A stretch of DNA of 64,000 nt from Eubacteriales bacterium (GTDB lineage Bacteria; Bacillota; Clostridia; Oscillospirales; CAG-272), in assembly GCA_045634385.1 (NCBI GenBank), contig JAZRAE010000029.1:5704-69703 (forward strand), given 5' to 3'. The notes beneath the pieces are model-generated. The model worked only from the letters and a program-made list of their open reading frames with translations, ran no database searches and was not told where the DNA came from. The position numbers and the translations under genes are program-made. Of the stretch, positions 31,789 to 52,282 are shown one piece after another (within the stretch, counting starts at the first letter, position 1; the number at the start of each line of letters is the position of its first letter).

Positions 31789-31800
31789 ATCAAATAATTT

Positions 31801-31834: not shown

Positions 31835-31854
31835 TGCTCTATAGATTGATAATC

Positions 31855-34234: not shown

Positions 34235-34658
34235 TTTTCTATTCCTTTCGGATCAATTACATTTTTACACTTTAGTATAACACATCAAAACGAGAAAGTC
34301 AAGCTATCGATGTATGATGTCCTACGTGATAAAAGCGTAAGTTTACTACACGTTTTCTGTCTTGAATACCATATCTTATGGAAAAGGAAAATATTTGACA
34401 AAATACATTTTATTGTATATTTTTAACCTTTTTTTCGTAACTTTTCCCGTAGTTAGTGAAAATGTACTGTATAAATTTTACAAAATAAAACAATTTTGTT
34501 TTCTTTTTTTCTACATTTTTAATAGATATTTTCGCGAATAATTTAAAATAATGTGAATTATATTGCTTTTTTGCCCGCGATGTGATAAAATAGATAAGCG
34601 TGTCTTATATACACGCGTACATTAACGCAGAATAATAAAAGAAAGGCAAAACCGAAAC

Positions 34659-37600
34659 ATGAAAACAAAAGGAATCACAAAGGTTTCATCGAGAATCTTG
34701 ATGGCTCTTTTAGCTGTAGTGATGGTCTTCACCTTTGCTGCCTCAAGTCTTGGGACTACGGTCTCAGCAGAAGATGGCGTGTTCAAGAAGAACGACTCGA
34801 TCTACACAGACTATAAGAGTTATCTCGACGGCTCTGTGGTACAAGCATTACCAAAGAACGTCGACGAAAATGAAACCATCTCGGTGATAGTCAAGCTTGA
34901 CACACCGACTCTGATGGATGCGTATAACAAGACGGACAAGTCAATGTCCTTCGCGGAGTACGTAAACACAGAGGAAGCTCAGGAAATCAGAGCCGATATA
35001 CAGTCCGAGAAGGAGAAATACCTCATTGCTCTTACAAGAAGCGGTATTTCATACGAAACCGGCTGTGACTATGCGAATGTCCTCGCAGGCTTTGAAGTCC
35101 TTTACACAGCAAAAAACTTTGAAAACGCTTGTGAATCTCTCCCCAATGGTGCAACTGCCATCGTCGGTGAGGTATACAATGTATCCGAAACTAAGCTTGT
35201 TGAGAACAAGATAGACGTCTACGAAGAAACCGGAATCTTCGATAGTTCGGACTTTATGATCAATGGTCAGAAGTATTCGGGAAGCGGAATGGTAGTAGCG
35301 GTACTTGATACCGGTCTTGACTATACTCACCCCGCATTTGACCCTGCAAGACTTGATAAGTCTAATCTCACACTCACCAAGGATAAGGTCGCAAATCACG
35401 TAAGTAATACCACCGCGGCATCGAGAGTTCCCGGGCTTACCGCTGATGACGTATACATAAATGAGAAGGTTCCCTTCGCATTCGACTACGCAGACAACGA
35501 CTCCGACGTGTACTCTCTTCACAACAATCACGGTACCCACGTTTCGGGCGTTATCGTCGGACACGACGACACCATCATAGGCGTTGCACCCGATGCACAG
35601 CTCGTTTCGATGAAGATATTCTCCGACGTTCAGGATTCTGCACGTGCATCTTGGATTCTCGCGGCACTTGAGGACTGTGTAGAGCTTGGTGTTGACGTAA
35701 TCAACATGTCGCTCGGTACAGCCTGTGGCTTTAGCCGTGAGACCGACGAGGAGCAGATGTCCGGTGTCTACGATGACATCAGAGCACTCGGTATCAGCCT
35801 TGTAGTTGCGGCATCTAACAGCTTCAACTCAGCATACGGCTCGGAGAAGAACGGTAACCTCGGTCTTACATCCAACCCTGATACCTCGACAGTAGGTTCT
35901 CCTTCTACCTATAACGGTGCGCTCTCTGTAGCATCCATCAACGGTACAAAGACACCCTACATTCTCGACTCCAAGGGCACTATTATATACTTTGTTGAGT
36001 CTTCGGACAGCGCGGGTGAAGAAAAGTACTTCTTCGATGAGCTGCTCGGTACGGATCTAAGTGAAACCGAACTTGAATACGTACTCATCCCCGGTGTAGG
36101 TAATCCGTCCGACTATGACGGCATAAACGTCAAGGGTAAAATAGCTCTTGTACGTAGAGGTACAAACACCTTTGAGGAAAAAGCCAAGGCTGCAGAGGCG
36201 GCAGGTGCAAAGGCTCTTATTGTATATAACAATACCTCCGGTGATATCCGAATGAACGTAGGTATAGTATCTATTCCCGTATGTTCGGTAAGCCAGGACG
36301 ACGGTGAAATGCTCGCGGCAGCAAAGACCGGCACTCTCAAGATCAGCAAGTCGCAGTCTTCCGGTCCTTTTATGTCCGACTTCTCATCCTGGGGCCCCTC
36401 TCCCTCTCTTCAGATCAAGCCCGAGATAACCGCTCACGGCGGTAATATTCTCTCTGCTGTAACAGGTCACGGCTATGACAGACTTTCCGGTACTTCTATG
36501 GCTTGTCCTAATATGGCGGGTGCGATTGCGCTTATGCGTCAGTACGTTATCACCAATTTCGAGTCAAGAATCAAGAACGAGAGCGGTGTTATCGACTACG
36601 TTGAAGTAAATTCCATCGTCAACAGACTCCTTATGTCTACTGCCGATATAGTTAACAATAAAAACGGCCTTCCCTACGCCGTAAGAAAGCAGGGCGCGGG
36701 TCTTGCAAACCTCGACGATGCAGTAGCAACGGGTGCTTACATCCTCACCTACGACAGACTCACCGGCTCGGTAATGGATAAGTCCAAGATTGAGCTCGGC
36801 GACGACCCTAACAAAACAGGCGTATATACTCTCAAATTTACGATAGACAATTTCGGTAATTCTGCACTTTCATATGATATATCAGCAAATGTTATGACCG
36901 AGGGTGTAAGTGAAACCCCCACCTATCAGGGTGAAACCGTTGTTTCCGAAGAAGGATATCTTCTCGAGGGAGCACGCGTTGAGATCACATCGACAAACGG
37001 CGGATCACTCAGTGGCAAAACCGTTACCGTCGAAGCAGGTAAGAAATGCGACGTTATCATCACCATCACTCTCGGTGAGGATGACAAGGCATATCTCGAC
37101 TCTTCCTTCGAAAACGGTATGTATATTGAAGGATTCGTAACCCTTACCGCCAAGGAAGAGGGCTCCGTTGATCTTAACGTACCTTATCTTGCATTCTACG
37201 GCAACTGGTATCAAGCTCCCCTCTTTGACCTTGATTATTTCGAGACCAACAGAGACGAGCTCGACGACTCTATTGCAACTCTCGATAAAACTCTGCCCGA
37301 CGCATATGCTACACGTCCTATCGGCGGTATCTCCGACGACTACGTTAGCTACCTCGGCTCATTCTACTTTGTACAGAATCCCAAGAACAAGATAATCTCC
37401 GCATCCAGAGATTACATCGCACTCTCCAACAATGACGGCACGATAAGATCACTCCGCTTCGTTTGGGGAGGTATGCTCCGTAACTCGGAGAAGATCGTTA
37501 TAACCATAACCGATGATGCAACGGGTGAGGTCATCTTCGAAAGGGTAGAAACCTCTATCCGTAAATCATACGGTGACGGCGGATCATACATTTATCCCGC

Positions 37601-40600
37601 AAACATTGAGATAGAGTTTGATACCGCGGACTACAACCTTAAGAATAATTCCACCTATACTGTTAAGCTTCAAGGCTACCTCAATTATGACGACGGTACA
37701 GGTGTAAATAAGACGCCCGAGGAGAACCTCAAGAGCACTTTTGAGTTCCCCCTCACAATAGACTTTGAAGCTCCCTCTCTTACAGGCTGTGAATTCTACA
37801 CAGAGTATGATAAGGATGCTAAGAAAACCCGTCTTTATGCTAAGATGGCGGTATATGATAACCACTATGCAATGGGTATGCAGATCGGTTACGTAGGACT
37901 TGGTGAGTATGTTGACGAGAGCACCGGCGAAATGGTAAACGGCAATATGCTCTACCCCTTCGAGACCTATATGACACCCATCTACTCGGTACACAACGGC
38001 ACGACCTACGTGACATATGAGCTTACCGACTACATATACGACATAAAGCAGAATTCTTATAACAAAAACACATTTGCAGTTTCTCTTTACGACTATGCTA
38101 TCAACGAGGCTACCTACGAGATAGAGCTCCCTGACGATTTCGCAGAGCTGTATCTTGAAGAGTCCGATATAACCCTTAACCCCAACGAGGTATACACAAT
38201 CACCACCAACGTGTATCCCGAAAGCGAGTGGGATGAGCTTCTCGAGTATTCTTACTCCGGAGACGCTATCCGTATCGTAAACAACAAGATCGTTGCGGTT
38301 AAGTCCGGTAAGAGCTCGGTATTTATCTACGATCCCAAAACGCAGAAGGAAGTGACGATGTCCGTCACGGTAAGAGCCCCCGGTGATGAGGGATACAAAG
38401 AGGTAACTAAACCCGTAGCAGACGTATTCAAGCTCGAAGGATATGATACACTGAACGCATTCTACTTCTTATCTAACGATGACAGAGATATCGGTGTAAC
38501 AGGTGATAATATTCTCTTTAACGGTGAAAACTATTCACTCTCATTCTTCCCCTCGGAATCGGTTCGTATCAACTACAAGCTCGACGCATACTTCCCGGAT
38601 GATACAACCGTGGAGTTCATCTCAAGTAACGAGAGTATTGTGACGGTTGATCAAAACGGTGTTATCGTAGCTCTGGACGAAGGCTATACCTCTATCACCG
38701 TCAGAGTTCTTCAAAACGGAAAACCGACCTATACGGCAAAGACTATCTCGATAGAGGTCAAGGATCCCTACGTAAGAACCGGTCCGACGCTTAATAATTA
38801 CTACGGTGCGGGCCATATGAACTCCGGAAACGTTGAGATTCCGGAAGATATGCTCTTTACCCAGATCGGTCAGTACGCATTCTCAAACTACGACTATATA
38901 CCCAAAACCGAAGAGGAAATCCTCGCAGATCCCGAATCCAATGATTCTACGAAGATTACCTACATAGGTAACGACGATATCAAGAGAGTTGTAATCCCCG
39001 AAGGCATCAAAACTATCGGTGCGTATGCATTTGCAAATCTTACCGCACTTGAAGAAGTTGTCCTTCCCTCAACCCTTGAGGCTATCGAATACGGTGCGTT
39101 CTTCAACTGTATAAACCTTAAGACAGTAAAAGGACTTGAGCACGTAAAGCTCATTAACCAGAACGCATTTGCAAACTGTAATATTTCGAACGACCTCTCG
39201 CTTGACAGCATCCACGCTATCGGTGATTACGCGTTCGCAAACAACAGAAGTCTTAAATCCATAAAGTTCCCCTCTACACTCAGCTCTATCGGTGCTTACG
39301 CATTTATGAGCAATATGTCTCTTACAAACTTTGACGTTTCAAACTGCGGCACTATTAAATACGGTCCTTACGTATTTATGAACTGTCGTTCCCTTGAGAC
39401 GATCACTATGAATACAAACGTTATTCCTGCAGGAGCTTTCTACAGCTGTCTTAAACTTAAGACGGTAAACATCGGCTCGACCGTGTCTTACATCGGTGAG
39501 TATGCATTCACCGATACCGCTATAACGGAATTTACGGTTGCAAGCGGAAACCAGACCTATTACCCCTCGGCAAACAACGGTTATCTCCTCTCTGCCGACG
39601 GCACAACACTTCTTATCGTAGCTCCCGGTTTTGAGGGTGAGTTCAGCCTTACCGGTGTTACAGAGATAGGCGTTGGTGCATTCGCGGGAAATAAAAAGGT
39701 TACGTCCGTTTATATGCCCGATGTGACAGTAGTTAACGATTACGCATTTTCAGAGTGTACAAATCTTACTGATATCACACTCGGAGATCTTGCTGCAATT
39801 GGAAAGTATTCCTTCTTCTTAACATCTATAACATCCCTTCCCTCTCTTAGCGGAGTAGACTTTATCGGCGACTATGCCTTTGCCTTTACTCTCATAACCG
39901 AGGTTAGCATAGATGACAATAAGATTATCGGCGAGGGTGCATTCTGCGAGTGTACCGAGCTTAAGAAGGTCACTATAGGTAATGATGTTGTAATCGGAAA
40001 GAGCGCGTTCCTTCGTGGTACAACCACAGACGACCCGAGAAATCCCGGAAACTACCTCAACCTTGGCAATAAAGCCGTTGAAGATTTCGAAAGTGGCTTC
40101 TACCGTTATGACTATCTCTCTAAGCTCACAAGCCTTACTATCGGTAATAATGCGGATATAGGCGAGGCTGCATTTATGGGTGCAACCTATCTTACCAAAG
40201 TGAGCCTTGGCGATGGAGCACTCATTGGAAGAATGGCGTTCTACAACTGCCGTGCACTCTATGACATTGACCTGTCCGGAGCAAAGAAAATCGGCAATAT
40301 GGCGTTCTCCGGTGATAACACCTACGCGTTCATAGACGCCGCAGGCACGGATTACGCCGTACGCGACAACGCATATGTGCTCGTATACTTCAACCCGATA
40401 TTCACCTATGTGGATCTCTCATCCTGTGAGGTTATCGAGGATCAGGCATTCATCTACTGCAAAAAACTCAAAGAGGTTAAGCTCGGTGATAAGATAACCG
40501 AAATTCCTCATATGGCGTTTGCAAACTGCGATTCTCTTACTACTGTAAACCTTGATAATGTGGTTACACTCGGCTATGCAGCATTCGGTGAAGCAAACCT

Positions 40601-42923
40601 TACTTCGGCAAATCTCTCAAAGGCAGAAAACATTGGTGACTATGCCTTCACTTACTGTGAAAACCTTAATAACGTTATTCTTAATCCCATAGGCTCAAAC
40701 ATTGGTGAGGGTGCGTTCTCTTACTGCTCGTCCCTTAACAATATCCACCACCTCAACAAGGTGCGTGATATGAAGAACTATGCATTCGCGTATACTGATA
40801 TCATCGATATCAACCTTGAATGTGCGATATCCGTCGGTGACTTTGCCTTCATTAAAGAGGCAATAACTCCCGTAAACCTTAAGCTTGGCGAGAATATTGT
40901 TACCCTCGGTGACAACCCCTTCGCTCTGTGCGAAATCGGTCCGTTCTATACCGTAGTGGAGGAAATTTGGAATGGTCACGTTGTCAAGAGCGAATATCTC
41001 TACACATACGACATCAACAACTACGTCAAGATAATCAACGGTTCTATTTACTGTGTAGTGCCCAACGGTCTTGAGCTCACCACATACGTAGGTCTTGATT
41101 ACGAAGGCAATAGTCTTGATAAGGATGACGTTAAGCTTGACGAGAGTACGGTAAGAGTATCTGCAATGGCGTTTGCCGGTGCGGATATTACAAGAATAAC
41201 TCTCCCCCATTCCTTGAGATCTATCGGTCATAAGGCATTCTATCAATGCGATAATCTGCAGATAGTAATATTCGAGAGCTATGAAGCTCCCGTTCTTGAG
41301 GAAGAATTCGATCAGGCTCTTTACGATGCATTCACTAACATTCCTTGCAAGGGTGACTACGAATTCACCTATTGGGAGGACACAAACGGTGATGGAAGAC
41401 TTGACACCCAACTTCCCGTCACCTACTCAGGTCTTGGAATAATCCCCTATTATATGTGGAATATGTCCTCGACAAAATATAACAACATCTTCTACGGTGC
41501 TACCTTTGTTGATTACATCGGTAACAAAAATTACAGTAATATGGGCAATCTCATTATGGTTGCTCCATCAAACGGTGTATACTACGACACCTTCATACTC
41601 GATCAGTACTTCGGATCTAAGATTTCCGGTGCGGTTGCTGCGGATGACGTTACACTTTCCGCTATGGCTGCGATTAACGCTCTGCCGGAGAGAGTAACGC
41701 TCGATGACGAGCATCTCGTTATAGCTGCAAGAAATGCGTATAACCAGATCAGCAGCGTAGAACAGCAGGCACTCGTTACCGAGTATCTGCAGAAGCTCGT
41801 TACTGCCGAAAACCTAATTAAGGCGTACAAGAATTCCGGTACAACCGATACTCCCGTGATTGAAGATCCCACCGTGGATACCAAAGATCCCACCAAGACC
41901 GCACTCATAGTTCTCTCAGTAGTTGAGGCGGTAGAGATCGTCGGACTTGCTACAGCGGCAATCGTATGGTTCTATCTCAGAAGAAGAAAGCAAATGAGAG
42001 ATAATCTTGCACTCCAAGGCAGTCTTACCAGAGTAACGGTTAAGAAGCCAAAAAGCGAGATAACCGAAAAGGTAGAAACCGAAGAGGAGATTGAAGCAAG
42101 ACTCAAGGAGTACGAAAAACGTGCTGAAGAAGCCAACGTAAAGCACGAAAGAAACAGAAAGATTAGAAATATCGTTATTTATGTTCTTCTCTTTGCCCTT
42201 TGCCTTGGCTGTGTTGCGTTTATAACCACAAAATGCAGTAAGGACAACTCTCCTTACGCAGGCTACGGCGATGAGGGATACGGTGTCAGCATTAAGTTTG
42301 ATGCTAACGGCGGTATGTTCACCACCAACACCTCGGTACTTGTAGATACCTACAGTCTTGACTCCCTTTCCACATCCGATGACGGAAATAAACTCATATC
42401 TCTTCTCGATCCGAGTGACTCCAAAAGAGGTACTCAGGCATACCTTGCTGCGAAGGTAGGTTATCACCTCGCCGGCTGGTACAGAGTGAGAACCGAAATC
42501 ACCGATGATGGAGGCAACATAATAGGCTATAGCTATAGCGGTAAGTGGAATTTCGACGGTGATATGTATTCTATCCCTGCTGACAGAAACTACAACCCCT
42601 CAAAGCCCGTACTTACACTCTATGCGGCGTGGGTACCCGATCTTGTCTGCGAATTCTATTCGGTAGGCGAAGACGGAACATTAACCTTAATCGAAACAAA
42701 GGAAATCAATCCTGTGGAAAGCACAGAGATAACTCTGCCTGCTTATGATGCAGAAAACGGTGCATACGAGATCGGAGGCTACTTATACGATCTCTATTAC
42801 AACGAGTATTGCACCGGTGAGAAAATCGATGGCACTTCTATAACTCATACAGGTATCTTTAGCGTTGAAACCGCTACCGTTGAGAACCCTGTAATGAAGA
42901 TATATTGCAAGCCCATTGACTAA
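34659..42923 (+). CDS. Giant cell-surface subtilisin-like (S8) protease with PA insert, Big_2 domains, a long BspA-type leucine-rich-repeat region, two TM segments and a C-terminal Listeria/Bacteroides-repeat module (2754 aa)
   Basis: Type I signal peptide (..TVSA-ED). Catalytic triad codons: Asp217 (35307, VLDTG), His294 (35538, HGTHV), Ser613 (36495, SGTSMACP). PA-like insert (KGKIALVRRGTNTFEEKAKAAEAAGAKALIVYNN). LRR_5-type repeats (VVIPEGIKTIGAYAFANLTALEEVVLPSTLEAIEYGAF...). GG.F and LAGWY motifs near the end. Confidence 0.9.
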   Translation: MKTKGITKVSSRILMALLAVVMVFTFAASSLGTTVSAEDGVFKKNDSIYTDYKSYLDGSVVQALPKNVDENETISVIVKLDTPTLMDAYNKTDKSMSFAEYVNTEEAQEIRADIQSEKEKYLIALTRSGISYETGCDYANVLAGFEVLYTAKNFENACESLPNGATAIVGEVYNVSETKLVENKIDVYEETGIFDSSDFMINGQKYSGSGMVVAVLDTGLDYTHPAFDPARLDKSNLTLTKDKVANHVSNTTAASRVPGLTADDVYINEKVPFAFDYADNDSDVYSLHNNHGTHVSGVIVGHDDTIIGVAPDAQLVSMKIFSDVQDSARASWILAALEDCVELGVDVINMSLGTACGFSRETDEEQMSGVYDDIRALGISLVVAASNSFNSAYGSEKNGNLGLTSNPDTSTVGSPSTYNGALSVASINGTKTPYILDSKGTIIYFVESSDSAGEEKYFFDELLGTDLSETELEYVLIPGVGNPSDYDGINVKGKIALVRRGTNTFEEKAKAAEAAGAKALIVYNNTSGDIRMNVGIVSIPVCSVSQDDGEMLAAAKTGTLKISKSQSSGPFMSDFSSWGPSPSLQIKPEITAHGGNILSAVTGHGYDRLSGTSMACPNMAGAIALMRQYVITNFESRIKNESGVIDYVEVNSIVNRLLMSTADIVNNKNGLPYAVRKQGAGLANLDDAVATGAYILTYDRLTGSVMDKSKIELGDDPNKTGVYTLKFTIDNFGNSALSYDISANVMTEGVSETPTYQGETVVSEEGYLLEGARVEITSTNGGSLSGKTVTVEAGKKCDVIITITLGEDDKAYLDSSFENGMYIEGFVTLTAKEEGSVDLNVPYLAFYGNWYQAPLFDLDYFETNRDELDDSIATLDKTLPDAYATRPIGGISDDYVSYLGSFYFVQNPKNKIISASRDYIALSNNDGTIRSLRFVWGGMLRNSEKIVITITDDATGEVIFERVETSIRKSYGDGGSYIYPANIEIEFDTADYNLKNNSTYTVKLQGYLNYDDGTGVNKTPEENLKSTFEFPLTIDFEAPSLTGCEFYTEYDKDAKKTRLYAKMAVYDNHYAMGMQIGYVGLGEYVDESTGEMVNGNMLYPFETYMTPIYSVHNGTTYVTYELTDYIYDIKQNSYNKNTFAVSLYDYAINEATYEIELPDDFAELYLEESDITLNPNEVYTITTNVYPESEWDELLEYSYSGDAIRIVNNKIVAVKSGKSSVFIYDPKTQKEVTMSVTVRAPGDEGYKEVTKPVADVFKLEGYDTLNAFYFLSNDDRDIGVTGDNILFNGENYSLSFFPSESVRINYKLDAYFPDDTTVEFISSNESIVTVDQNGVIVALDEGYTSITVRVLQNGKPTYTAKTISIEVKDPYVRTGPTLNNYYGAGHMNSGNVEIPEDMLFTQIGQYAFSNYDYIPKTEEEILADPESNDSTKITYIGNDDIKRVVIPEGIKTIGAYAFANLTALEEVVLPSTLEAIEYGAFFNCINLKTVKGLEHVKLINQNAFANCNISNDLSLDSIHAIGDYAFANNRSLKSIKFPSTLSSIGAYAFMSNMSLTNFDVSNCGTIKYGPYVFMNCRSLETITMNTNVIPAGAFYSCLKLKTVNIGSTVSYIGEYAFTDTAITEFTVASGNQTYYPSANNGYLLSADGTTLLIVAPGFEGEFSLTGVTEIGVGAFAGNKKVTSVYMPDVTVVNDYAFSECTNLTDITLGDLAAIGKYSFFLTSITSLPSLSGVDFIGDYAFAFTLITEVSIDDNKIIGEGAFCECTELKKVTIGNDVVIGKSAFLRGTTTDDPRNPGNYLNLGNKAVEDFESGFYRYDYLSKLTSLTIGNNADIGEAAFMGATYLTKVSLGDGALIGRMAFYNCRALYDIDLSGAKKIGNMAFSGDNTYAFIDAAGTDYAVRDNAYVLVYFNPIFTYVDLSSCEVIEDQAFIYCKKLKEVKLGDKITEIPHMAFANCDSLTTVNLDNVVTLGYAAFGEANLTSANLSKAENIGDYAFTYCENLNNVILNPIGSNIGEGAFSYCSSLNNIHHLNKVRDMKNYAFAYTDIIDINLECAISVGDFAFIKEAITPVNLKLGENIVTLGDNPFALCEIGPFYTVVEEIWNGHVVKSEYLYTYDINNYVKIINGSIYCVVPNGLELTTYVGLDYEGNSLDKDDVKLDESTVRVSAMAFAGADITRITLPHSLRSIGHKAFYQCDNLQIVIFESYEAPVLEEEFDQALYDAFTNIPCKGDYEFTYWEDTNGDGRLDTQLPVTYSGLGIIPYYMWNMSSTKYNNIFYGATFVDYIGNKNYSNMGNLIMVAPSNGVYYDTFILDQYFGSKISGAVAADDVTLSAMAAINALPERVTLDDEHLVIAARNAYNQISSVEQQALVTEYLQKLVTAENLIKAYKNSGTTDTPVIEDPTVDTKDPTKTALIVLSVVEAVEIVGLATAAIVWFYLRRRKQMRDNLALQGSLTRVTVKKPKSEITEKVETEEEIEARLKEYEKRAEEANVKHERNRKIRNIVIYVLLFALCLGCVAFITTKCSKDNSPYAGYGDEGYGVSIKFDANGGMFTTNTSVLVDTYSLDSLSTSDDGNKLISLLDPSDSKRGTQAYLAAKVGYHLAGWYRVRTEITDDGGNIIGYSYSGKWNFDGDMYSIPADRNYNPSKPVLTLYAAWVPDLVCEFYSVGEDGTLTLIETKEINPVESTEITLPAYDAENGAYEIGGYLYDLYYNEYCTGEKIDGTSITHTGIFSVETATVENPVMKIYCKPID
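38800..41290 (+). other. BspA-type leucine-rich repeat region inside the giant protease ORF
   Basis: Dozens of approximately 23-aa units of the form I.IP.(S/G)V..IG..AF..C..L. Boundaries are approximate. Confidence 0.7.
41994..42923 (+). other. C-terminal module of the giant ORF that looks like a formerly independent lipoprotein gene
   Basis: TM1 (ALIVLSVVEAVEIVGLATAAIVWFYL) plus the stop-transfer RRRKQ is followed directly by an in-frame Met (41994). Next come a charged linker and a signal-peptide-like segment with a lipobox (IVIYVLLFALCLGC), then a Listeria/Bacteroides-repeat domain. Confidence 0.5.
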
Positions 42924-42938
42924 GGAGAAGGAGAAAAA

Positions 42939-45900
42939 ATGAAAAAAAGAATAATTTGCTTGCTCCTGTGCGTGGCTATGTGCTTTTCGACATCTCTGAC
43001 GCTAACAGGATGCACATCCGGTAATTCCGGAGCAGAAGCTTTCGTTATAATGACGGAAAATCTGGACGGACTCTTTAATCCATTCTTCTCAACGTCGGCA
43101 AATGACGGAACTATCGTTGCAATGACTCAGATCGGTATGCTTTCCTCCAAGCTTAACGAGGAGGGCGAGGTAGACGTGGCATTCGGTGAAAACGAATCCA
43201 CGGTTACCCTCGACTTTGAACAAAGTGAGCTTAACGCAAACAATGAAACCGTCTATACCTTCGTCCTTAAGAACGGTATTAAATATTCGGACGGTCATCC
43301 TCTCACCATGGAGGACGTACTGTTCAACCTCTACGTTTACCTTGACCCCGTATATACAGGCTCTGCTACGATCTATTCGACTGATATCAAGGGTCTGGCT
43401 GCGTACAGAAACCAGTCGCTCGGAGCTGACAGCGACAACAACAGCGAGGACACCATCAATCAGACCGCTGCGAGCAGAGCTTCACAGCGAATAATGACCC
43501 TCGTACAGCTCTACTGGGACACTAACAAGAAGCTCAACGGTTCGGCGGCTTCTACAAATAACGTAAGCTACGCACAGATGGTCGAGGCCATCAAAGCGTA
43601 CAATATTCAGGCTGATCTCGGTTATCTCTCTGCAGTAGCAACTTCCGATAAGCACTCCGAGATAACATATCAGTACCTGCTCGACGACTACGAGCTTGCA
43701 CTCAAGTATTTCCGTGAGGAGCTTGAGAGTGACTTCAAGAATGCCAAGGATGCTTACACCGAGTCTCCCTACAAGGAACATCCGGAGTTTAAAGACGAGG
43801 TATTCTGCTTCATGTTTGCCGAGGGCTTCATCACCCCCGAGTATGAGAAGATCCCCGGAACAAACAAGGATGACAAGTCCAAGATCAAAGGCTTCCATTA
43901 CAATTACAACAACGACACCATAACCACTAAAGAAGCAGCTATCGAAAAGGTATATAACGATACCGTAACTCAGGGACTTGATATGATCCTTCTTTACTGG
44001 GCAACTGCATCCAAGCTCTCTACCGACTTTACGGCAAAGGCTAAAGAAGTTATACTCCGTGAAAGTGCGATCGGCGGTCTTATCGTTCCCAACATTGAGG
44101 GTATCGTATCTCTCGGTCACACCACGGGCGTTGAGGTTGTTACAGTTAACGGAACAGAGTACAAGGTTGCACACGATCACGACGAGAACGGTGCACCCAC
44201 CAAGGAAGATGAGTACGATGTGCTTCAGATCACCATCAACGGTGTCGATCCCAAAGCAATATGGAACTTTGCCTTCTCGGTTGCTCCCCAGCACTACTAC
44301 GGTAAGGGCAGCTCGGTTGGCGTAGATATCGCAAACAATCAGTTCGGTGTTGAATTCTCGTCTTTCGACTATATGAGAGACGTACTTCAGACTCCCGACA
44401 ACAACAAATTGCCTATGGGAGCAGGAGCGTATAAGGTAACTGACCGTTCCGGCAGTGACAATCCCGACAGAAACGATTTCTTCAGCAACAACATCGTTTA
44501 CTTCAAGGCTAATACTTATTTTGAAACTGTCGGTAAGGGTATAAACAATCCCAAGATCGATAAAGTTCGTTACCAGGTAATCAGTGCTTCCAACGCCTTG
44601 GCTGCACTTGAAGAAGGCAGCGTACACTACATCACGCCCCAATATTCAAAAGACAACTACACCAAGATAGCAGAGCTTGAAAAGAAGAATTTTGAAAGTC
44701 TTCTTACAGATCAGCTCGGTTACGGTTATATCGGTATCAACGCCTCTAAGGTAACAAATATCAATATCCGTAAGGCTATTATGGCAGCGATGAACACCAC
44801 TCTTGCGCTCGACTACTATGCAAGTGGAACTGCATCACAAATCTACTGGCCTATGTCCAAGGTATCTTGGGCTTATCCCAAGGGCTCGGGTGATAACATC
44901 ACCAACGATAAGGGATATCCTCAGCCCGGCGGAACCTTTATTGAGGCAGATGCCGAGGAAGCAATCCTCAGCTATATGCAGGCGGCAGGCGTAAGTGCAG
45001 GTCACCCTGACCTCTCCATAACCTTCACCATTGCAGGCTCTAACCTCAATGACCATCCCACCTATAAGACCTTCAGAGATGCGGCAGAGCTGCTCAACAA
45101 ACTCGGTTGGGACGTAACGGTTGAGCCCGATACTCAGGCACTCACCAAGCTCGCTACAGGTTCTCTTGAAGTGTGGGCGGCAGCGTGGGGCTCTACTATC
45201 GACCCCGACCTTTACCAGGTTTACCACAAGAATTCTACCGCTACCTCCACCCTTGCCTGGGGCTATCCTCACATAAAGGCTGCGGGAAGCGAGGAAGAAA
45301 AACAGATCCTCAACAATTTGTCGGAAAAGATTGAAGCTGCCCGTGAGACTACGGACAGAACAACACGTTCCGCACTCTATAAGGAAGCTATGGGTCTTAT
45401 CCTCGACCTTGCGATCGAGCTTCCCGTATATCAGCGTTCTACGGTTTACGTATACAATACCGACATCATCAATCCCGACTCTGTACCTGACGTTGTCAAC
45501 CCCTACTCCTCTCCCCTTGACAGAATCTGGGAGCTTGAGTTCGCGGAGGGCGCGTTTAGCGGCGGGAACAGTATTGACATAGGCGCTTTTTTCGGTATTT
45601 TCGCAGGAATACTGGCTGTAGCATCTGTTATACTTGCCGCCGTTTACGTAAGCAAGAAGCAGGCTGAAAAATCTCCTATGCTTGCCTACGCAGTAACACT
45701 CTCCGATATTGAAGTGGGTAACGTGAGAATTCCCGGTCAGCCGAAGCTGAAAAAACAATCTAAAGCTAAAGTTTCTACAGAAGATAACACAAGCGATGAA
45801 ATCAGCGACGAAGCTGACTGCACGGAAAAAAACGAAGAAACAGAAAATATTACGCAAACAACTGACCCTATAGTTACTGCGGAAGACGTAGATACCACAG

Positions 45901-45950
45901 ATAACATGGAAACAGAAGAAAAAACCGAGGAAGGAGAAGAAATATGTTAA
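42939..45950 (+). CDS. ABC transporter substrate-binding lipoprotein, peptide/nickel (family 5, OppA/DppA-like), enlarged (1003 aa) with a C-terminal TM anchor and acidic tail
   Basis: Lipobox LTLTGC. Family-5 SBP features (IKYSDGHPLTMEDVLFN, GAGAYKV, LGYGYIGIN). C-terminal TM IGAFFGIFAGILAVASVILAAVYV followed by a D/E/T-rich tail. RBS AAGGAGAAGGAG lies 15 nt after the protease stop. Confidence 0.85.
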   Translation: MKKRIICLLLCVAMCFSTSLTLTGCTSGNSGAEAFVIMTENLDGLFNPFFSTSANDGTIVAMTQIGMLSSKLNEEGEVDVAFGENESTVTLDFEQSELNANNETVYTFVLKNGIKYSDGHPLTMEDVLFNLYVYLDPVYTGSATIYSTDIKGLAAYRNQSLGADSDNNSEDTINQTAASRASQRIMTLVQLYWDTNKKLNGSAASTNNVSYAQMVEAIKAYNIQADLGYLSAVATSDKHSEITYQYLLDDYELALKYFREELESDFKNAKDAYTESPYKEHPEFKDEVFCFMFAEGFITPEYEKIPGTNKDDKSKIKGFHYNYNNDTITTKEAAIEKVYNDTVTQGLDMILLYWATASKLSTDFTAKAKEVILRESAIGGLIVPNIEGIVSLGHTTGVEVVTVNGTEYKVAHDHDENGAPTKEDEYDVLQITINGVDPKAIWNFAFSVAPQHYYGKGSSVGVDIANNQFGVEFSSFDYMRDVLQTPDNNKLPMGAGAYKVTDRSGSDNPDRNDFFSNNIVYFKANTYFETVGKGINNPKIDKVRYQVISASNALAALEEGSVHYITPQYSKDNYTKIAELEKKNFESLLTDQLGYGYIGINASKVTNINIRKAIMAAMNTTLALDYYASGTASQIYWPMSKVSWAYPKGSGDNITNDKGYPQPGGTFIEADAEEAILSYMQAAGVSAGHPDLSITFTIAGSNLNDHPTYKTFRDAAELLNKLGWDVTVEPDTQALTKLATGSLEVWAAAWGSTIDPDLYQVYHKNSTATSTLAWGYPHIKAAGSEEEKQILNNLSEKIEAARETTDRTTRSALYKEAMGLILDLAIELPVYQRSTVYVYNTDIINPDSVPDVVNPYSSPLDRIWELEFAEGAFSGGNSIDIGAFFGIFAGILAVASVILAAVYVSKKQAEKSPMLAYAVTLSDIEVGNVRIPGQPKLKKQSKAKVSTEDNTSDEISDEADCTEKNEETENITQTTDPIVTAEDVDTTDNMETEEKTEEGEEIC

Positions 45951-46933
45951 AATACATACTTAAACGAATTGCGCTATCGATACTCATTCTTATTGGCGTA
46001 TCACTCATAATCTACTTCCTCATCAGACTCATGCCCGTTGACTTCATTCAAAACAAGGTCAATGCAATGAACCAATCCAATACCGTACCTGCCGACGCGG
46101 TCGAAAAGCTTTATGAAATGTACGGTCTTGACAACAGTGGCTTCAAGGGTATTGTAAAGGGTTACTTCAACTGGCTTGGTGCACTTGCTAAGCTTGATCT
46201 CGGTAAGAGCTTTGTTGACTATGCTCCCGTTTCCGAGGTTATTGCAAAAAATATGGGTATATCCTTTGCAGTTGCTCTTATTGCTACCGTATTTGAGTTT
46301 ATGATCGCGATCCCTCTCGGAATTACTGCGGCAACTCACCAATATTCGTTCCGTGACTATCTTGTTACCGTACTTGCAATGATAGGCATTTCCCTGCCCT
46401 CATTCTTCTTCGGACAGATGTTAAAGAACGTATTTGCACTCGAGCTCGGTTGGTTCCCGAGCCAGGGTACACTTTCCGGTTCAGGCTCGGCAACGGGTCT
46501 GGCACTTATCCCCGATTACTTAGCTCATATGTTCCTTCCCATTCTCACGGTCGTAATACTCAGTATCGGTCCGAGAATGAGAATGACAAGAACGAATATG
46601 CTCGAGGTTATGAACTCCGACTATATCCGTACCGCGAGAGCTAAGGGTCTTACCGAAACCAAGGTTATTTACAAGCACGCATTCCGTAACACGCTCATTC
46701 CTCTTGTTACTACTCTCGCAGGACTTCTGCCCTCGCTCTTCTCAGGTGCTATCATCACAGAGCAGGTATTCGGCCTCGACGGTATCGGTAACATAGCGCT
46801 CAACCGAATGATGCAGGGTGATATCCCCTTCATTATGGGTTACAACATGTTCCTTGCTATGCTTTCCGTTCTCGGTGTGCTTCTTTCTGACCTTATGTAC
46901 GTAATAGTTGACCCGAGAGTCAAGCTTGATTAA
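45944..46933 (+). CDS. ABC transporter permease (OppB/DppB-like)
   Basis: Starts MLKYILKRI. Contains the EAA-loop segment DYIRTARAKGL.E..V..KHAFRN. 329 aa. Overlaps the SBP stop. Confidence 0.92.
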   Translation: MLKYILKRIALSILILIGVSLIIYFLIRLMPVDFIQNKVNAMNQSNTVPADAVEKLYEMYGLDNSGFKGIVKGYFNWLGALAKLDLGKSFVDYAPVSEVIAKNMGISFAVALIATVFEFMIAIPLGITAATHQYSFRDYLVTVLAMIGISLPSFFFGQMLKNVFALELGWFPSQGTLSGSGSATGLALIPDYLAHMFLPILTVVILSIGPRMRMTRTNMLEVMNSDYIRTARAKGLTETKVIYKHAFRNTLIPLVTTLAGLLPSLFSGAIITEQVFGLDGIGNIALNRMMQGDIPFIMGYNMFLAMLSVLGVLLSDLMYVIVDPRVKLD

Positions 46934-46942
46934 GGAGGACTT

Positions 46943-48361
46943 ATGGAAGATAAAAACATTTCTATGAATGAAGAAAATACCGAAGTCCTCATTACAGGCG
47001 AGACAGCAGAGGCAGTTGAGATTAATAATGAAACTGTAGCAGAGGTTGAAGCTACCGAAGCAGAAGCAACCGAAGATGTAGCAGAGGTTGAAACTACCGA
47101 AGCAGAGGTAACCGAAGATGTAGCAGAGGTTGAAACTACCGAAGCAGAGGTAACCGAAGCTGTTGCAGAGGTTGAAACTACCGAAGCAGAAGCAACCGAA
47201 GATGTAGCAGAGGTTGAAACTACCGAAGCAGAGGTAACCGAAGCTGTTGCAGAGGTTGAAACTACCGAAGCGGAGGTAACTGAAGATGTTGCAGAGGTTG
47301 AAACTACCGAAGCAAAAGCAACCGAGGCTGTAGCCGAGAATGAAGAAGAGGCAAAAGATACCGAAGTTCCTCTCGATAGAAACATCAAGCTTATGTCCCC
47401 CATGCAGATGGTCATCCGTCGTTTCTTCCGCTCCAAGCTCTCTATCGTAGGTTTAATAATGATCGTATCCCTCTTCCTCTTTAGCTTCTTTGGTCCTCTC
47501 GTTTACACGAGATGGGGCGAGATTGAGCTTGACGAGTCAGGTACCGTTTCCTACACTACACAAGAGATCGAGGTAGTTAATCCCGACGGCACAATCACCA
47601 TCATTAAGCAGACCGTTGAGAGACAGGAGAAGGATAACTACCTTGCTCCCCCCTCAAAGGATCACTTGCTCGGTACGGATGAGCAGGGCTATGACGTATT
47701 CACAAGACTTATGTACGGCGGTAGAATTTCCCTATCGGTAAGCTTTATCGCGGTATTTGTAATCACCGTCCTCGGTGTTATACTCGGCGGTATAGCAGGC
47801 TACTTTGGCGGTGTGATAGATAATCTCATAATGAGAATATGCGACGTACTCATGTGTCTGCCCGGTATTCCGATCCTTCTTATCATCAGTACACTTCTTG
47901 AGGCGGCACAGGTTGACGCAAAGTACAGAATTTACTGGCTTATGGTTTACCTTACCCTGTTCTCTTGGCCCGGCACGGCACGTCTTGTACGCGGACAGAT
48001 ACTTTCTCTGCGCGAGCAGGAGTATATGGTTGCGGCAGAGGCTATGGGTTACTCCACCGCATGAAAGATATTCAAGCATCTCGTTCCCAACGTTATGCCC
48101 CAGCTCATAGTACAGATGACACTCAGCCTTGGTAGTATGATTCTCTACGAGGCTACCCTTTCCTACCTCAACATGGGTGTTAAAGCACCTTACGCTGCTT
48201 GGGGTACTATGATTAACATCATTTCCACTAATACCGATATTCTCCAGAACAACTTCAACGTATGGGGTGCGCCCGGTATTTGTATAGTAATCGCAGTTTT
48301 GGGCTTCAATTTCGTCGGTGACGGTCTTAGAGATGCCCTTGACCCGAAGAGTAGGAGGTAA
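46943..48361 (+). pseudogene. OppC/DppC-like ABC permease interrupted by one in-frame TGA (48062..48064); carries an N-terminal acidic repeat extension
   Basis: ORFs 46943..48064 and 48095..48361 are in the same frame. Reading through gives ..EQEYMVAAEAMGYSTA*KIFKHLVPNVMPQLIVQMTLSLG.., one continuous conserved EAA-loop/TM5 region of this permease family. Confidence 0.8.
47039..47332 (+). repeat. Seven tandem copies of a 42-nt repeat encoding AEVETTEAEVTEDV-type acidic 14-mers
   Basis: Unit boundaries counted directly: 47039, 47081, 47123, 47165, 47207, 47249, 47291. There are only a few substitutions between units. Confidence 0.95.
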
Positions 48362-48364
48362 TTT

Positions 48365-49744
48365 ATGAGTCTTATTGATAAAATCAAATCAATGACGGGC
48401 AAAACGGAAAATACCGATGCTCCAAAGTCAAAGAATTACCTCACAGGTAAGGAAATACGCGCGATTGCCAAGGAAAACTCAAAAATAATGTTCAGACTTG
48501 AGAAATACAAGTACCGCAAGGCAGAAGAGTCTGAATTTACCACAAAGATGAAGGATGACAGAAATATCCTTGAGATCGACAATCTTAACACCTACTTCTT
48601 TACCGATCAAGGTATTGTTAAGGCGGTAAACGGTGTATCCTTCAACATTCCCAAGAATACCACCGTCGGTATCGTAGGCGAGTCCGGATGCGGTAAATCC
48701 GTAACGAGTATGTCTGTAATGAGACTTCTCCAGGGTCCCCAGGGACAGATATACTCGGGTAGCATTCGCTTCAAGGCTTACGACTACAAGCGTGACGAAA
48801 ACGGAAATCCCATTCCCAAGCTCGTTACCGATGAGAACGGTGATTACATCTACACAGAGCTTCTCGACAAAAAGGGACGCGTGAAGATGAATAGACGAGG
48901 AGAGGCACTCTACGTTCCTATGCAGGAGCATGACGAAAAGGGCCGCCCCGTATTTGAGACCGAGGAAAAGGTCTACGATATCGCAAAAATGCCTATGAGA
49001 GAAATCCACCGCATAAGAGGAAAGCAGATCTCGATGATCTTCCAGGAGCCTATGACTTCTCTTAACCCCATTTTCACCATTGGTGAACAGCTTGATGAGG
49101 TAACCTTCATCCATACTCCGGGTGCTACCAAGGAGATGGCAAAGGAGCGCTCACTTGAAATGCTTGAGCTTGTAGGTATTGCAATGCCCGAGAGAGTGTA
49201 CAATTCATTCCCTCACGAGCTTTCCGGCGGTATGCGTCAGAGAGTTATGATCTCAATGGCGCTTGCGTGTGACCCCAGACTCATTATCGCAGACGAGCCC
49301 ACAACGGCTCTTGACGTTACGATCCAAGCACAGATACTTGACCTTCTGCGCGATCTTAAGGATAGAATCGACGGATCTATAATGCTTATTACCCACGACC
49401 TCGGTATAATTGCCGAGATGGCGGACTACGTTGTAGTAATGTACGCAGGACGTGTTATTGAGCAGGGTACGGTTCAGGAGATCTTCCACGATCCGAAGCA
49501 CCCCTACACAATAGGTCTTCAGAAGTCGAAGCCCACAATGCGCTCAGGCGCAGAGTCGGACACACTCTTTAACATTCCCGGTAACGTTCCAAACCCTGTA
49601 AATATGCCTAACCACTGCTTCTTCAAGGAAAGATGCTCGATGTGTAAGGAAAAATGCTCGGGTGATTACCCCTGCATGGTACAGGTAAGTCCCACACACT
49701 ACGTTGCTTGTCACTTATATGGAGAGGAGGAGAACAATGGCTGA
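48365..49744 (+). CDS. ABC transporter ATP-binding protein (OppD/DppD-like) with an N-terminal extension and an internal insertion
   Basis: Walker A GESGCGKS, signature LSGGMRQR, Walker B LIIADEPTTALD, and a C-terminal oligopeptide-type Cys-rich tail. An extra segment lies between IRFKA and IRGKQISMIFQEP. Confidence 0.92.
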   Translation: MSLIDKIKSMTGKTENTDAPKSKNYLTGKEIRAIAKENSKIMFRLEKYKYRKAEESEFTTKMKDDRNILEIDNLNTYFFTDQGIVKAVNGVSFNIPKNTTVGIVGESGCGKSVTSMSVMRLLQGPQGQIYSGSIRFKAYDYKRDENGNPIPKLVTDENGDYIYTELLDKKGRVKMNRRGEALYVPMQEHDEKGRPVFETEEKVYDIAKMPMREIHRIRGKQISMIFQEPMTSLNPIFTIGEQLDEVTFIHTPGATKEMAKERSLEMLELVGIAMPERVYNSFPHELSGGMRQRVMISMALACDPRLIIADEPTTALDVTIQAQILDLLRDLKDRIDGSIMLITHDLGIIAEMADYVVVMYAGRVIEQGTVQEIFHDPKHPYTIGLQKSKPTMRSGAESDTLFNIPGNVPNPVNMPNHCFFKERCSMCKEKCSGDYPCMVQVSPTHYVACHLYGEEENNG

Positions 49745-50834
49745 AAACGAAATACTCGAAAACGTCGAAGTGGTTGAAACTTACGACGATGAGTCTATAA
49801 TGGCGGCGCATCTTGAGGCAAAAGAGGCCGAGAAACAAGCTGATTTTGAAAAGCCCTTTGACTCCGAGGCTCTGCTTGAGGTAAGACACCTCAGAAAGTG
49901 CTTCCCTATCAAAAAATCCATCACGGGTAAGACCTTGCAGGAGCTTATAGCAGTTGATGATATATCATTTAAGCTCAATCCGGGTGAGACTCTTGGTATA
50001 GTTGGTGAGTCAGGATGCGGTAAAACCACAATGGGTAGAACCATCCTTAAACTCCACCAGCCCTCCGGCGGTCAGATCATCTTTGACGGCAAGGACATAA
50101 CAAGCTACACCAACAAGGAAATGAGAGATATCCGTACTAAGATGCAGATTATCTTCCAGGATCCCTACTCATCCCTTCCTCCCCGTAGCACGGTCGGTGA
50201 TATCATCTCCGAGCCTGTCCTCGTACACGGTATCGTACCCAAAGAGCAGGTGAAGGATTACGTACTCGATCTTATGGAAAAATGCGGTCTTCGTGACTAC
50301 TACTACGAGAGATATCCCCACGAGTTCTCGGGCGGTCAGAGACAGAGAATCTGTATCGCAAGAGCACTCTCGGTAAATCCTCAGCTTGTAGTATGTGACG
50401 AGCCTGTTTCCGCTCTTGACGTTTCTATCCAAGCGCAGATAATTAATCTTTTGAAGAGCCTGCAGAAGTCTATGAACCTTACCTATCTCTTCATATCCCA
50501 TGACCTTTCCGTAGTTAAGTTTATATCGGATAAGATCGGTGTTATGTACCTCGGATCTATGGTTGAGTTCGGTAACAAAAAGGATATCTTCGACAATCCT
50601 CTGCATCCCTATACCCAGGCGCTCTTCTCGGCTATCCCTGAGCCTAACCCCGACGTCAAGATGAACAGAATTGTACTTAAGGGTGATATTCCCTCCCCTG
50701 CAAATCCTCCCAAGGGCTGTCGTTTCCATACGAGATGCCCTCACGCAACCGAAAAGTGTAAGCACGTGCCTCCGGCATATAGAGAGTTGGAGCCCGGTCA
50801 CTTCGCGGCTTGTCACCTTCTTAACGAGGAATAA
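49737..50834 (+). CDS. ABC transporter ATP-binding protein (OppF/DppF-like) with an acidic N-terminal extension
   Basis: Walker A GESGCGKTT, signature FSGGQRQR, Walker B LVVCDEPVSALD. Start at MAENEI with a GGAGAGGAGG RBS. Confidence 0.92.
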   Translation: MAENEILENVEVVETYDDESIMAAHLEAKEAEKQADFEKPFDSEALLEVRHLRKCFPIKKSITGKTLQELIAVDDISFKLNPGETLGIVGESGCGKTTMGRTILKLHQPSGGQIIFDGKDITSYTNKEMRDIRTKMQIIFQDPYSSLPPRSTVGDIISEPVLVHGIVPKEQVKDYVLDLMEKCGLRDYYYERYPHEFSGGQRQRICIARALSVNPQLVVCDEPVSALDVSIQAQIINLLKSLQKSMNLTYLFISHDLSVVKFISDKIGVMYLGSMVEFGNKKDIFDNPLHPYTQALFSAIPEPNPDVKMNRIVLKGDIPSPANPPKGCRFHTRCPHATEKCKHVPPAYRELEPGHFAACHLLNEE

Positions 50835-50837
50835 AAA

Positions 50838-51089
50838 ATGGCAAATAAAAAACAAAAAAAGCCTAAGGTCAAATATATCGACGATGGAAGAACCATCGCG
50901 GATATGTCAGCCTTCGGCACGGTTGACAAACGCTACACAGGTCCTAAGGGCGGTTTCAAAGCCTCCTTGCAGACCTATTGGAACGCGGTAAAATTGATGT
51001 TCGTGCCTATGATGGTCACGATAGGAATTATTAGTCTTGCATTCCTCATTATGTGGTTAATGTTAACTTTAGGTTACAAAACAAACTAA
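50838..51089 (+). CDS. Small basic single-TM protein (83 aa), last gene of the transporter operon
   Basis: Starts 3 nt after the oppF-like stop. Lys-rich N-terminus and a C-terminal TM (MFVPMMVTIGIISLAFLIMWLMLTL). No family recognised. Confidence 0.55.
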   Translation: MANKKQKKPKVKYIDDGRTIADMSAFGTVDKRYTGPKGGFKASLQTYWNAVKLMFVPMMVTIGIISLAFLIMWLMLTLGYKTN

Positions 51090-51094
51090 AAATT

Positions 51095-51132
51095 TCCCCT
51101 GCACGGTGGTTAAGCCTTGCAGGGGATTTTTT
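51095..51132 (+). terminator. Terminator of the protease/Opp operon
   Basis: Stem cccctgca/tgcagggg followed by ATTTTTT. Confidence 0.8.
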
Positions 51133-51134
51133 AA

Positions 51135-51284
51135 AGTTGTATTTCTCACGGCGTGAGAAGCTATATTTTTCATACAAAAAAATTATATTACGCCGAATGG
51201 CGCAGTTATATTGTTGCTAACCGCAAAAGTTATATTATGCAAAATGTCACAGTTATATTTTCTCGCGGTGTGAGCAGTTGTTTT
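51135..51284. repeat. Seven-unit 22-25-nt periodic array with the constant word AGTTATATT and variable, mostly palindromic fillers
   Basis: Word starts at 51135 (agttgtatt), 51159 (agctatatt), 51181 (aattatatt), 51204, 51228, 51251 (agttatatt) and 51276 (agttgtttt). Fillers include tctcac-ggc-gtgaga, cgcc-gaat-ggcg, ttgc-taacc-gcaa and ctc-gcggtgt-gag. Confidence 0.8.
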
Positions 51285-51296
51285 GAAACGCTATTG

Positions 51297-52109: not shown

Positions 52110-52282
52110 TCCAAGTTTAGTACATATATTCTATCACACCAAACACGAAAAAGCAATACATACATACTTTTTCGCATATTGACTTTGCGCGCGTTTTGAT
52201 ATATAATATATTTAGCGAAATGTTTTTATAGCTAAATTTTACGCATTTTTTTGCTATATGTAATTCAAAAAATGGAGGTCTT

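Follow-up and report, generated by a model that had tools for sequence, protein, structure and literature searches.

The lactococcal proteolytic system, which consists of the cell-envelope proteinase PrtP, the maturase PrtM and the Opp permease, is the closest described counterpart of the gene cluster analysed here; prtP and opp are separate loci, and most characterised cell-envelope proteinases are anchored to the wall through an LPXTG sortase signal. Peptidase genes co-transcribed with peptide ATP-binding cassette (ABC) transporters are known from dppA in the dpp operon of Bacillus subtilis and from opp-pepO of Lactococcus lactis, and the polysaccharide utilisation loci (PULs) of Bacteroidota and Gram-positive bacteria pair surface hydrolases with a dedicated importer. 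To our knowledge, the acquisition of nitrogen and carbon from protein by Gram-positive gut anaerobes is poorly defined outside the lactic acid bacteria. A stretch of 64,000 nucleotides (nt) from contig JAZRAE010000029.1 of a Eubacteriales bacterium, hereafter the window, was found to carry seven consecutive reading frames on the + strand between positions 34659 and 51132, encoding a surface protease of family S8, a substrate-binding protein (SBP), permeases of the OppB and OppC types, ATPases of the OppD and OppF types and a protein of 83 amino acids (aa). An earlier note on this DNA had described a tight array of a 2754-aa S8 protease and Opp-type genes and had proposed that protease and transporter are functionally coupled; the open reading frames (ORFs), junctions and terminator were found to be as described, and the coupling was supported by the comparative data given below.

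The locus probably represents a module of eight parts, conserved among uncultured gut Clostridia, in which extracellular proteolysis is coupled to Opp/Dpp-type import, its parts being a subtilase with an immunoglobulin-like (Ig) and leucine-rich repeat (LRR) stalk, a lipoprotein, the SBP, OppB, OppC, OppD, OppF and the 83-aa single-pass protein. The module is a conserved variant of the logic of a cell-envelope proteinase plus Opp, previously undescribed, and on sequence grounds it would most likely digest protein outside the cell and import the resulting peptides. As in the lactococcal system, the surface protease is a large S8 subtilase that has a PA insert and Fn3-type domains, and it is combined with an OppABCDF-type importer whose family-5 SBP is a lipoprotein. 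In contrast to PrtP/Opp, all components lie in one tightly packed syntenic module that is kept across species-level loci, there is no PrsA/PrtM-like maturase, its position being taken by a lipoprotein with B-repeat-like and beta-helix domains, and the protease is anchored by a transmembrane (TM) helix instead of LPXTG; the LRR region, an SBP larger by about 350 aa, the extended OppD and OppF and the 83-aa subunit are further additions. The dpp operon and opp-pepO share with the module a peptidase encoded in the same gene cluster as an Opp/Dpp transporter; DppA and PepO, however, are intracellular and act after uptake, whereas the enzyme of the module is predicted to be a secreted, membrane-anchored endoprotease acting before uptake. 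By analogy with PULs, the module combines genes for a depolymerase anchored at the surface, a surface binding protein and a transporter, while the presumed substrate is protein rather than glycan, the protein families are others and no regulator gene occurs within the conserved module.

Linkage and gene order

The SBP was found to have hundreds of relatives. The distribution of the module was determined by a GTDB scan with one genome per species, in which at least 502 genomes were found to encode a relative of the SBP, and the best 80 loci were compared. All 80 came from metagenome-assembled genomes (MAGs) of animal guts (Oscillospiraceae, Faecousia, Acutalibacteraceae, Clostridia and similar), and the closest species-level genomes were roe-deer caecum MAGs, with SBP identities of 87–89%. 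Linkage was counted by tblastn with the window proteins on species-level loci with enough flank. The S8 domain was found upstream and on the same strand in 64/64 loci whose upstream flank reached at least 8.9 kb, protease or lipoprotein sequence was present upstream in 76/76 loci with 700 nt of flank or more, and OppB, OppC, OppD, OppF and the small protein were present in 58/58 loci whose downstream flank was long enough. A gap with a median of 34 nt, and of at most 66 nt in 75/79 loci, preceded the SBP gene. Identities to the window proteins had medians of 74% (OppB), 61% (S8 domain), 60% (SBP) and 45% (both the LRR region and the small protein).

More distant members were located through an insertion in the SBP, and the linkage was retained in these relatives at SBP identities of 34–43%. 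Locus L090 encodes a protease of 2370 aa, a 421-aa protein and the SBP, and L092 the LRR end of a protease, a 535-aa protein and the SBP, followed by OppB, OppC and OppD. In L086 the order is permuted, with a 424-aa lipoprotein, the SBP, OppB, OppC, OppD, OppF and an 83-aa protein followed by the protease (S8-PA-fn3_5-LRR_5), which lies about 0.9 kb downstream of the transporter genes. Since the linkage persists where SBP identity has fallen to 34% and where the genes have been reordered, it provides strong evidence for a functional dependence between protease and importer. A linkage not conserved in related genomes had been set beforehand as refuting the coupling; instead, the linkage was found in all informative species-level loci.

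The control elements and the first junction of the locus in the window are the following.

34235..34658, + strand: AT-rich upstream intergenic region of 424 nt, bearing the ribosome-binding site (RBS) of the protease gene (sequence, consensus scan)
42924..42938, + strand: junction of 15 nt between the protease and SBP genes, with the RBS GGAGAAGGAGAA (sequence)
51095..51132, + strand: intrinsic terminator closing the module (−24.7 kcal/mol, z = −5.08, followed by a U run)

The gene upstream of the intergenic region is divergent, and a consensus scan of this region found a promoter-like site, TTGACA-17-TATTTT, at 34395-34423. A leader RNA or regulator site was discarded as a candidate, since no Rfam family was found at E ≤ 1 across 33300-52300, and thus none in the leader, and CodY-box-like matches occurred only at chance level, with none in the leader. 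The protease gene ends on TAA, and the SBP gene starts with ATG at 42939 after the 15 nt that contain the RBS, which confirmed the strong RBS and short spacing reported for this junction after the stop at 42923. The SBP and OppB genes overlap by 7 nt, the gaps between OppB and OppC and between OppC and OppD are 9 and 3 nt, respectively, OppD and OppF overlap by 8 nt, and a gap of 3 nt separates OppF from the 83-aa ORF. The terminator at 51095-51132 is the sole convincing one, as had been stated; no comparable + strand terminator was found within the operon by the terminator scan, and the terminator-like matches there were not taken as boundaries, their stems being short and their T tails poor. 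Judging from the spacing, the module genes would be co-transcribed. The next gene after the terminator is QueG-like (51297-52109) and convergent.

The protease, the lipoprotein and the substrate-binding protein

The first frame of the module comprises the following features.

34659..42923, + strand: fused 2754-aa ORF, a cell-envelope-type S8 protease followed by the N-terminal half of the accessory lipoprotein (Pfam, alignment)
35280..36701, + strand: S8 catalytic domain, aa 208-681, with an inserted PA domain, aa 482-552 (Pfam, E 4e-44 and 5e-17)
36810..37190, + strand: fn3_5 domain, aa 718-844, to which the coordinates refer, followed by Ig-like stalk domains (Big_2, aa 1315-1352) (Pfam)
39015..41300, + strand: BspA-type LRR region, about aa 1453-2214 (LRR_5, 393.6 bits, 8 stretches; positions by motif)
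41892..42227, + strand: TM anchor, aa 2412-2437, a Lys/Glu-rich cytoplasmic linker of 67 aa and a TM helix, aa 2505-2523 (hydropathy, alignment)
42228..42920, + strand: lipoprotein-derived ectodomain, aa 2524-2754, with InlB B-repeat-like beta domains (alignment, homologue model)

A signal peptide (aa 1-37) and a pro-region precede the S8 domain, in which the catalytic triad D217/H291/S612 was found to be intact by motif search (DTG at 217, HGTH at 291 and SGTSMA at 610). With this triad, a PA insert in the catalytic domain and a downstream Fn3-type domain, the protein has the features of an S8 protease of the cell-envelope proteinase type. No LPXTG motif was found in the protease by motif search, so that the wall anchor of this type is missing; the anchor is a hydrophobic helix (aa 2412-2437) followed by RRRK, and standalone orthologues have the same C-terminal end. 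The tandem LRR_5 repeats place the protease, by domain criterion, among the BspA-type LRR surface proteins, and the large LRR region seen earlier was confirmed, with a length by motif count of about 760 aa, close to but below the 830 aa first estimated.

The closest solved relatives were found to be C5a peptidase, SpyCEP and cell-envelope proteinase A (E 2e-63 to 1e-47, residues 205-852), the streptococcal ScpA/C5a peptidase and SpyCEP structures (PDB 7edd, 5xya, 1xf1 and 3eif) being the best match to the catalytic, PA and Fn3 region. ScpA and SpyCEP are sortase-anchored virulence factors with narrow substrates that are unlinked to an importer, unlike the protease of the module, which carries an LRR_5 stalk, is anchored by a TM helix and is 2400 aa long up to the point of fusion. 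The presence of these immune-evasion proteases among the closest solved relatives, together with the size of the LRR_5 region and the origin of every member from animal-gut samples, could suggest that the protease serves chiefly in adhesion or host interaction and is linked to the transporter through co-regulation of surface functions and not through feeding. This was judged very improbable, as a linkage kept through permutation and down to 34% SBP identity is hard to explain without direct functional dependence, and the neighbours of the module are housekeeping genes (QueG, PlsY, TsaE and TsaD), not those of an island.

Alignment with the relatives indicates that the 2754-aa ORF arose from two ancestral genes by fusion; the earlier note was right about the S8 ORF and overlooked the fusion. 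In most relatives a protease of about 2400–2530 aa ends in a TM helix, and the lipoprotein is encoded separately by the next gene, of about 420–500 aa (typically near 440 aa), whose product begins with a lipoprotein signal peptide. In the window the joint between the two parts consists of a TM helix, a cytoplasmic linker and a second TM helix, the last of which (aa 2505-2523) is the former lipoprotein signal peptide with its lipobox lost; the lipobox Cys of the standalone lipoproteins aligns with ITTKC of the fused ORF. The C-terminal beta-helix domain of the standalone lipoprotein, of about 190 aa, is absent in the window, L001 and L010. Fusion and gap counts, for which the lipoprotein part alone was used as query and the results were checked against ORFs, showed the fusion in the clade of the window and also in L023, L032/L035, L043 and L053, with unrelated linkers. 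Because fusions recur with unrelated linkers, protease and lipoprotein may act together physically, and the recurrence suggests that the two work together. The linkers of these distant fused species (L023, L032, L035, L043 and L053; about 8000-9980) are rich in Lys/Arg and Glu and cytoplasmic.

A model of the standalone lipoprotein homologue P0271 (pLDDT 93) displayed beta-rich InlB B-repeat-like domains followed by a beta-helix, and no enzymatic fold was evident in it. A single domain matched the InlB B-repeat 2y5p in Foldseek with a probability of 0.92–0.93 and E values of 0.2–0.3, and the whole chain of the model returned nothing at E ≤ 0.001. Flg_new (PF09479) matches in the lipoprotein were below threshold (9–17 bits versus 27), and searches of Pfam, NCBIfam and PDB sequences with the lipoprotein returned nothing above threshold; a precomputed match to PF05342 (M26 N-terminal) was found in two lipoprotein relatives.

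The SBP, which follows in the window, has three features of note.

42939..45950, + strand: family-5 (cluster C) SBP of 1003 aa with the lipobox LTGC, Cys25 (Pfam SBP_bac_5)
43389..44390, + strand: family-specific insertion, aa 151-484, largely helical (secondary structure of the model)
45576..45947, + strand: C-terminal TM helix and cytoplasmic tail (hydropathy, alignment)

The assignment to family 5/cluster C follows from an SBP_bac_5 score of 89 bits against a cut-off of 32. The AlphaFold model (pLDDT 81, pTM 0.76) consisted of a cluster-C core and a well-predicted, mostly helical insertion, and Foldseek gave a probability of 1.00 against AppA, OppA, DppA and NikA. The best matches were AppA with a nonapeptide (top), DppA, OppA and MppA; the others included NikA, CntA, sialic-acid binders and an EDTA binder, and all matches were at 11–18% identity. 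The modelled fold by itself would leave the ligand unfixed, and it is the linked protease taken together with the fold-level match that points to a peptide as the imported ligand.

The insertion was matched only 162 times among 1.84 billion representative proteins, nearly always at the equivalent position, in proteins that were mostly of 800–1050 aa or fragments, and it was kept in all aligned relatives. The conserved part of the SBP is a core of about 860 aa that includes the insertion and the lipobox, the latter present in 82/82. A reading in which protease and importer are coupled, but in which the ligand is of a specific class (glycopeptides of host or plant origin, cell-wall peptides or a processed signalling peptide) and not a bulk digest, would treat this insertion as an adaptation. 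The reading was considered unlikely, even though several observations favour it: over 860 aa the SBP retains about 60% identity between genera, against a median of 45% in the LRR region, its insertion is private to the family and nearly absent elsewhere, the cluster-C fold takes many ligand types and the SBP is without an equivalog-level match to a known peptide-binding protein. Against it, the protease is of the generic cell-envelope proteinase type, the best fold match of the SBP core binds oligopeptides, and the conserved module contains no gene for a glycosidase, an amidase or a pheromone regulator.

The SBP had been described as oversized, with a lipobox, a C-terminal TM helix and an acidic tail, which was found to be accurate. 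The TM helix spans aa 884-902, and the tail has 98 aa (27% D+E); the segment carries the juxtamembrane motif KSPMLAYAVTLSDIE and a variable acidic end. Helix and tail were present in only 8/80 species-level loci, the distal acidic part varying among them. The last SBP codons (EEGEEIC; EKGEEEC in relatives), at 45927-45950, double as RBS and start codon of OppB, and the conservation of these C-terminal residues probably reflects translation signals rather than protein function.

The permeases, the ATPases and the small membrane protein

The remaining genes of the module encode the following products.

45944..46933, + strand: OppB-type permease, 329 aa (Pfam BPD_transp_1, BPD_transp_1_N)
46943..48361, + strand: OppC-type permease, 472 aa if read through (Pfam BPD_transp_1, OppC_N)
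47035..47338, + strand: tandem repeat in OppC, 42 bp x 7.2, encoding an acidic 14-aa unit x 7 (TRF score 482, 90% matches)
48365..49744, + strand: OppD-type ATPase, 459 aa (Pfam ABC_tran, oligo_HPY; alignment to 8j5q_D)
48365..48565, + strand: basic N-terminal extension of OppD, conserved (alignment)
48776..49003, + strand: insertion in OppD, variable (alignment)
49737..50834, + strand: OppF-type ATPase, 365 aa, with an N-terminal extension at 49737-49871 (Pfam ABC_tran, oligo_HPY; NCBIfam)
50838..51089, + strand: small membrane protein of 83 aa (ORF; basic N-terminus, YIDDGRTIADMS motif, one C-terminal TM helix)

Both permeases are present with the expected domains, and both ATPases have the oligo_HPY C-terminal domain, which gives the two-ATPase composition of an importer. 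OppB scored 240.6 bits against the equivalog of the S. aureus-type Opp4B, for which the cut-off is 450, and the NCBIfam Opp-type permease matches were all below equivalog cut-offs; OppF passed the NF008453 subfamily cut-off with 415 versus 408 bits.

The OppC permease and its repeat, described earlier, are real, but the frame is interrupted by an in-frame TGA at 48062-48064 that had been overlooked. The TGA lies in the EAA loop and divides the frame into 373 + 98 codons, with positions 1-94 of the Pfam model before it and 98-183 after it. OppC is uninterrupted in all relatives, the TGA occurring only here; Arg stands at this position in 69/69 scorable relatives, within the motif EAMGYSTxRKIFKHLVP, and the codon is AGA in the close relative L001. 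Recoding of TGA (as Trp, Gly or Sec) and programmed read-through were ruled out, since the relatives have Arg, OppD ends on TGA as expected and the 2754-aa ORF is without an in-frame TGA; because OppD terminates on it, TGA is a genuine stop here. The 98 codons downstream are still 96–100% identical to those of relatives, and because of this the inactivation must be either very recent or only apparent, the TGA being a very recent nonsense mutation or a base-call or sequencing error. The machine may thus be inactive in this genome owing to the OppC stop, and if the stop is real the importer should be abolished in this strain.

The stop at an invariant Arg, the strain-specific expansion of the 42-bp repeat, the variable acidic tail of the SBP and the lack of the lipoprotein's beta-helix domain could all be accommodated if the locus in this genome were a decaying pseudogene cluster whose low-complexity decorations are neutral junk. 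Such decay appears improbable, given that all genes but OppC are intact, that the identity of the post-stop codons leaves only a very recent inactivation or a base-call error, and that the loss of the beta-helix is common to L001 and L010, both of which have an intact OppC.

Canonical importers for which reference structures are available, namely OppABCD (8j5q) and DppABCD (8wd9) of Mycobacterium tuberculosis and the E. coli-type 8z21, were compared with the module. OppD aligned with canonical Opp over the entire nucleotide-binding domain and the C-terminal oligo_HPY region, including the Cys-rich C-terminal motif, and the permeases have BPD_transp_1 and OppC_N as in Opp/Dpp. Differences from the canonical systems are the conserved basic N-terminus of OppD (67 aa), its variable insertion of about 65 aa, the conserved N-terminal motif of OppF, the acidic N-terminal extension of OppC, the extra single-pass protein and the SBP insertion of about 330 aa. 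The basic extension and the insertion of OppD and the acidic extension of OppF had been recognised before and were now measured. Relative to the solved M. tuberculosis OppD (8j5q_D), the N-terminal extension has 67 aa with 24% K+R, and in the insertion 76 residues (query 138-213) replace 11, a net gain of about 65 aa. The motif YL(S/T)GKEIRAIAK...LEKYK.RK..ESEF, in the N-terminal basic helix of OppD, was found in all relatives and is recognisable in L086. OppF starts at the ATG following GGAGAGGAGGAG, its extension has 45 aa with 33% D+E, and the motif YDDEA...KPFD at its N-terminus is conserved in most relatives.

The 83-aa basic TM protein that closes the operon was found as described, with a basic N-terminus and one TM helix. 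The pattern KKKKEK..YIDDGRTIADMS plus TM helix is conserved, and (F/Y)(V/I)DDGRTI is kept in L086; searches of Pfam, NCBIfam and PDB sequences with this protein gave no match. The low-complexity sequences behave otherwise. The acidic repeat of 7 x 14 aa that had been read in OppC is present as the 42-bp repeat, which is unique to the window and absent from all aligned relatives, and the acidic N-terminus of OppC varies among all of them; the internal insertion of OppD is full, shortened or absent among relatives. The conserved extensions thus differ from the low-complexity ones, and not all extensions are strain-specific junk, as comparison of the sequences indicates. The idea that low-complexity cytoplasmic tails assemble or regulate the complex was not supported in the form proposed, with the OppC repeat unique, the SBP tail limited to 8/80 loci and the OppD insertion variable. 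As to whether the extensions are absent from orthologs, which had been named as a sign of junk, the OppC repeats, the SBP tail and the size of the OppD insertion are indeed specific to clade or strain, whereas the OppD and OppF motifs, the small protein and the SBP insertion are conserved. In L086, OppB (446 aa, 12810-14150) and OppF (470 aa, 16545-17957) are both far longer than their counterparts in the window, and the subunit that bears extra sequence therefore differs between lineages.

Proposed mechanism and neighbouring genes

In the proposed mechanism, the C-terminal helix would tether the protease to the membrane, the catalytic domain lying distally, and the enzyme would cleave external proteins, while the LRR/Ig stalk and the B-repeat-like/beta-helix lipoprotein would position or scaffold it. 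The giant SBP would capture the cleavage products and pass them to OppBC, and OppD and OppF would power import. The conserved N-terminal helices of OppD and OppF and the small membrane protein would be family-specific additions on the cytoplasmic face, the last possibly a regulatory or assembly subunit.

Several points weigh against coupled proteolysis and peptide import. OppC has a premature stop in this genome, and the 8.3-kb protease gene may contain an internal promoter. Nickel, opines, sialic acid and oligosaccharides are also among the ligands of cluster-C SBPs, and the SBP of the window scored 89.4 bits against the Opp4A equivalog of NCBIfam, the cut-off of which is 650. Neither the lipoprotein nor the small protein yielded a function-assigning match in NCBIfam, Pfam, Foldseek or PDB, and neither experimental work on any member nor a description of the cluster was found by the literature searches.

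A further proposal, which is tentative and rather doubtful, holds that all eight products form one physical assembly from surface to cytoplasm, in which the protease would pass peptides straight to the SBP, and gating or assembly of the transporter would be the task of the basic helix of OppD, the OppF motif and the DDGRT motif of the small protein. Possible traces of such an assembly are the recurrent protease-lipoprotein fusions, the gain by the SBP of one clade of a TM helix with a conserved juxtamembrane motif, and the linkage that outlasts the change of gene order. If the parts do assemble physically, the module would be an example of substrate channelling from a surface hydrolase to an ABC importer.

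Coupled digestion and import, with or without a physical assembly, would make the module a unit resembling a PUL but devoted to the utilisation of protein, situated in the core genome of gut Clostridia of ruminants and other animals. It would add new parts to a much-studied class of transporters, namely a giant SBP with a private helical domain, ATPase extensions and an 83-aa subunit, and may be relevant to protein breakdown in the rumen and hindgut and hence to the nitrogen efficiency of livestock.

Genes for extracytoplasmic-looking redox proteins adjoin the module at 27482-34234. They encode a 1197-aa AhpC/TSA-Big_1 protein (27482-31075), a 232-aa Big_1/CarboxypepD_reg protein (31090-31788) and, on the − strand, a 519-aa protein with Fer4_5 and AhpC/TSA domains (31855-33414) and a 275-aa protein with a CD1871A-type CXXC C-terminus (33407-34234). 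Similar redox genes were found beside the module in L001 (upstream, 1-1426) and in L005 (downstream and inverted, 17289-21393), and a link of these genes to the folding or redox care of surface proteins is possible. Elsewhere in the window, a Bat-like operon on the − strand (9078-15506) encodes a MoxR-type AAA ATPase (AAA_3), a DUF58 protein and BatA/VWA proteins of 627 and 898 aa, and three large ORFs of 967, 1152 and 525 aa, also on the − strand (638-9081), had no Pfam match at E ≤ 1e-4. The region 62001-64000 presented a GC content of 0.336 and a strongly negative GC skew, compared with a GC content of about 0.42–0.47 elsewhere in the window.

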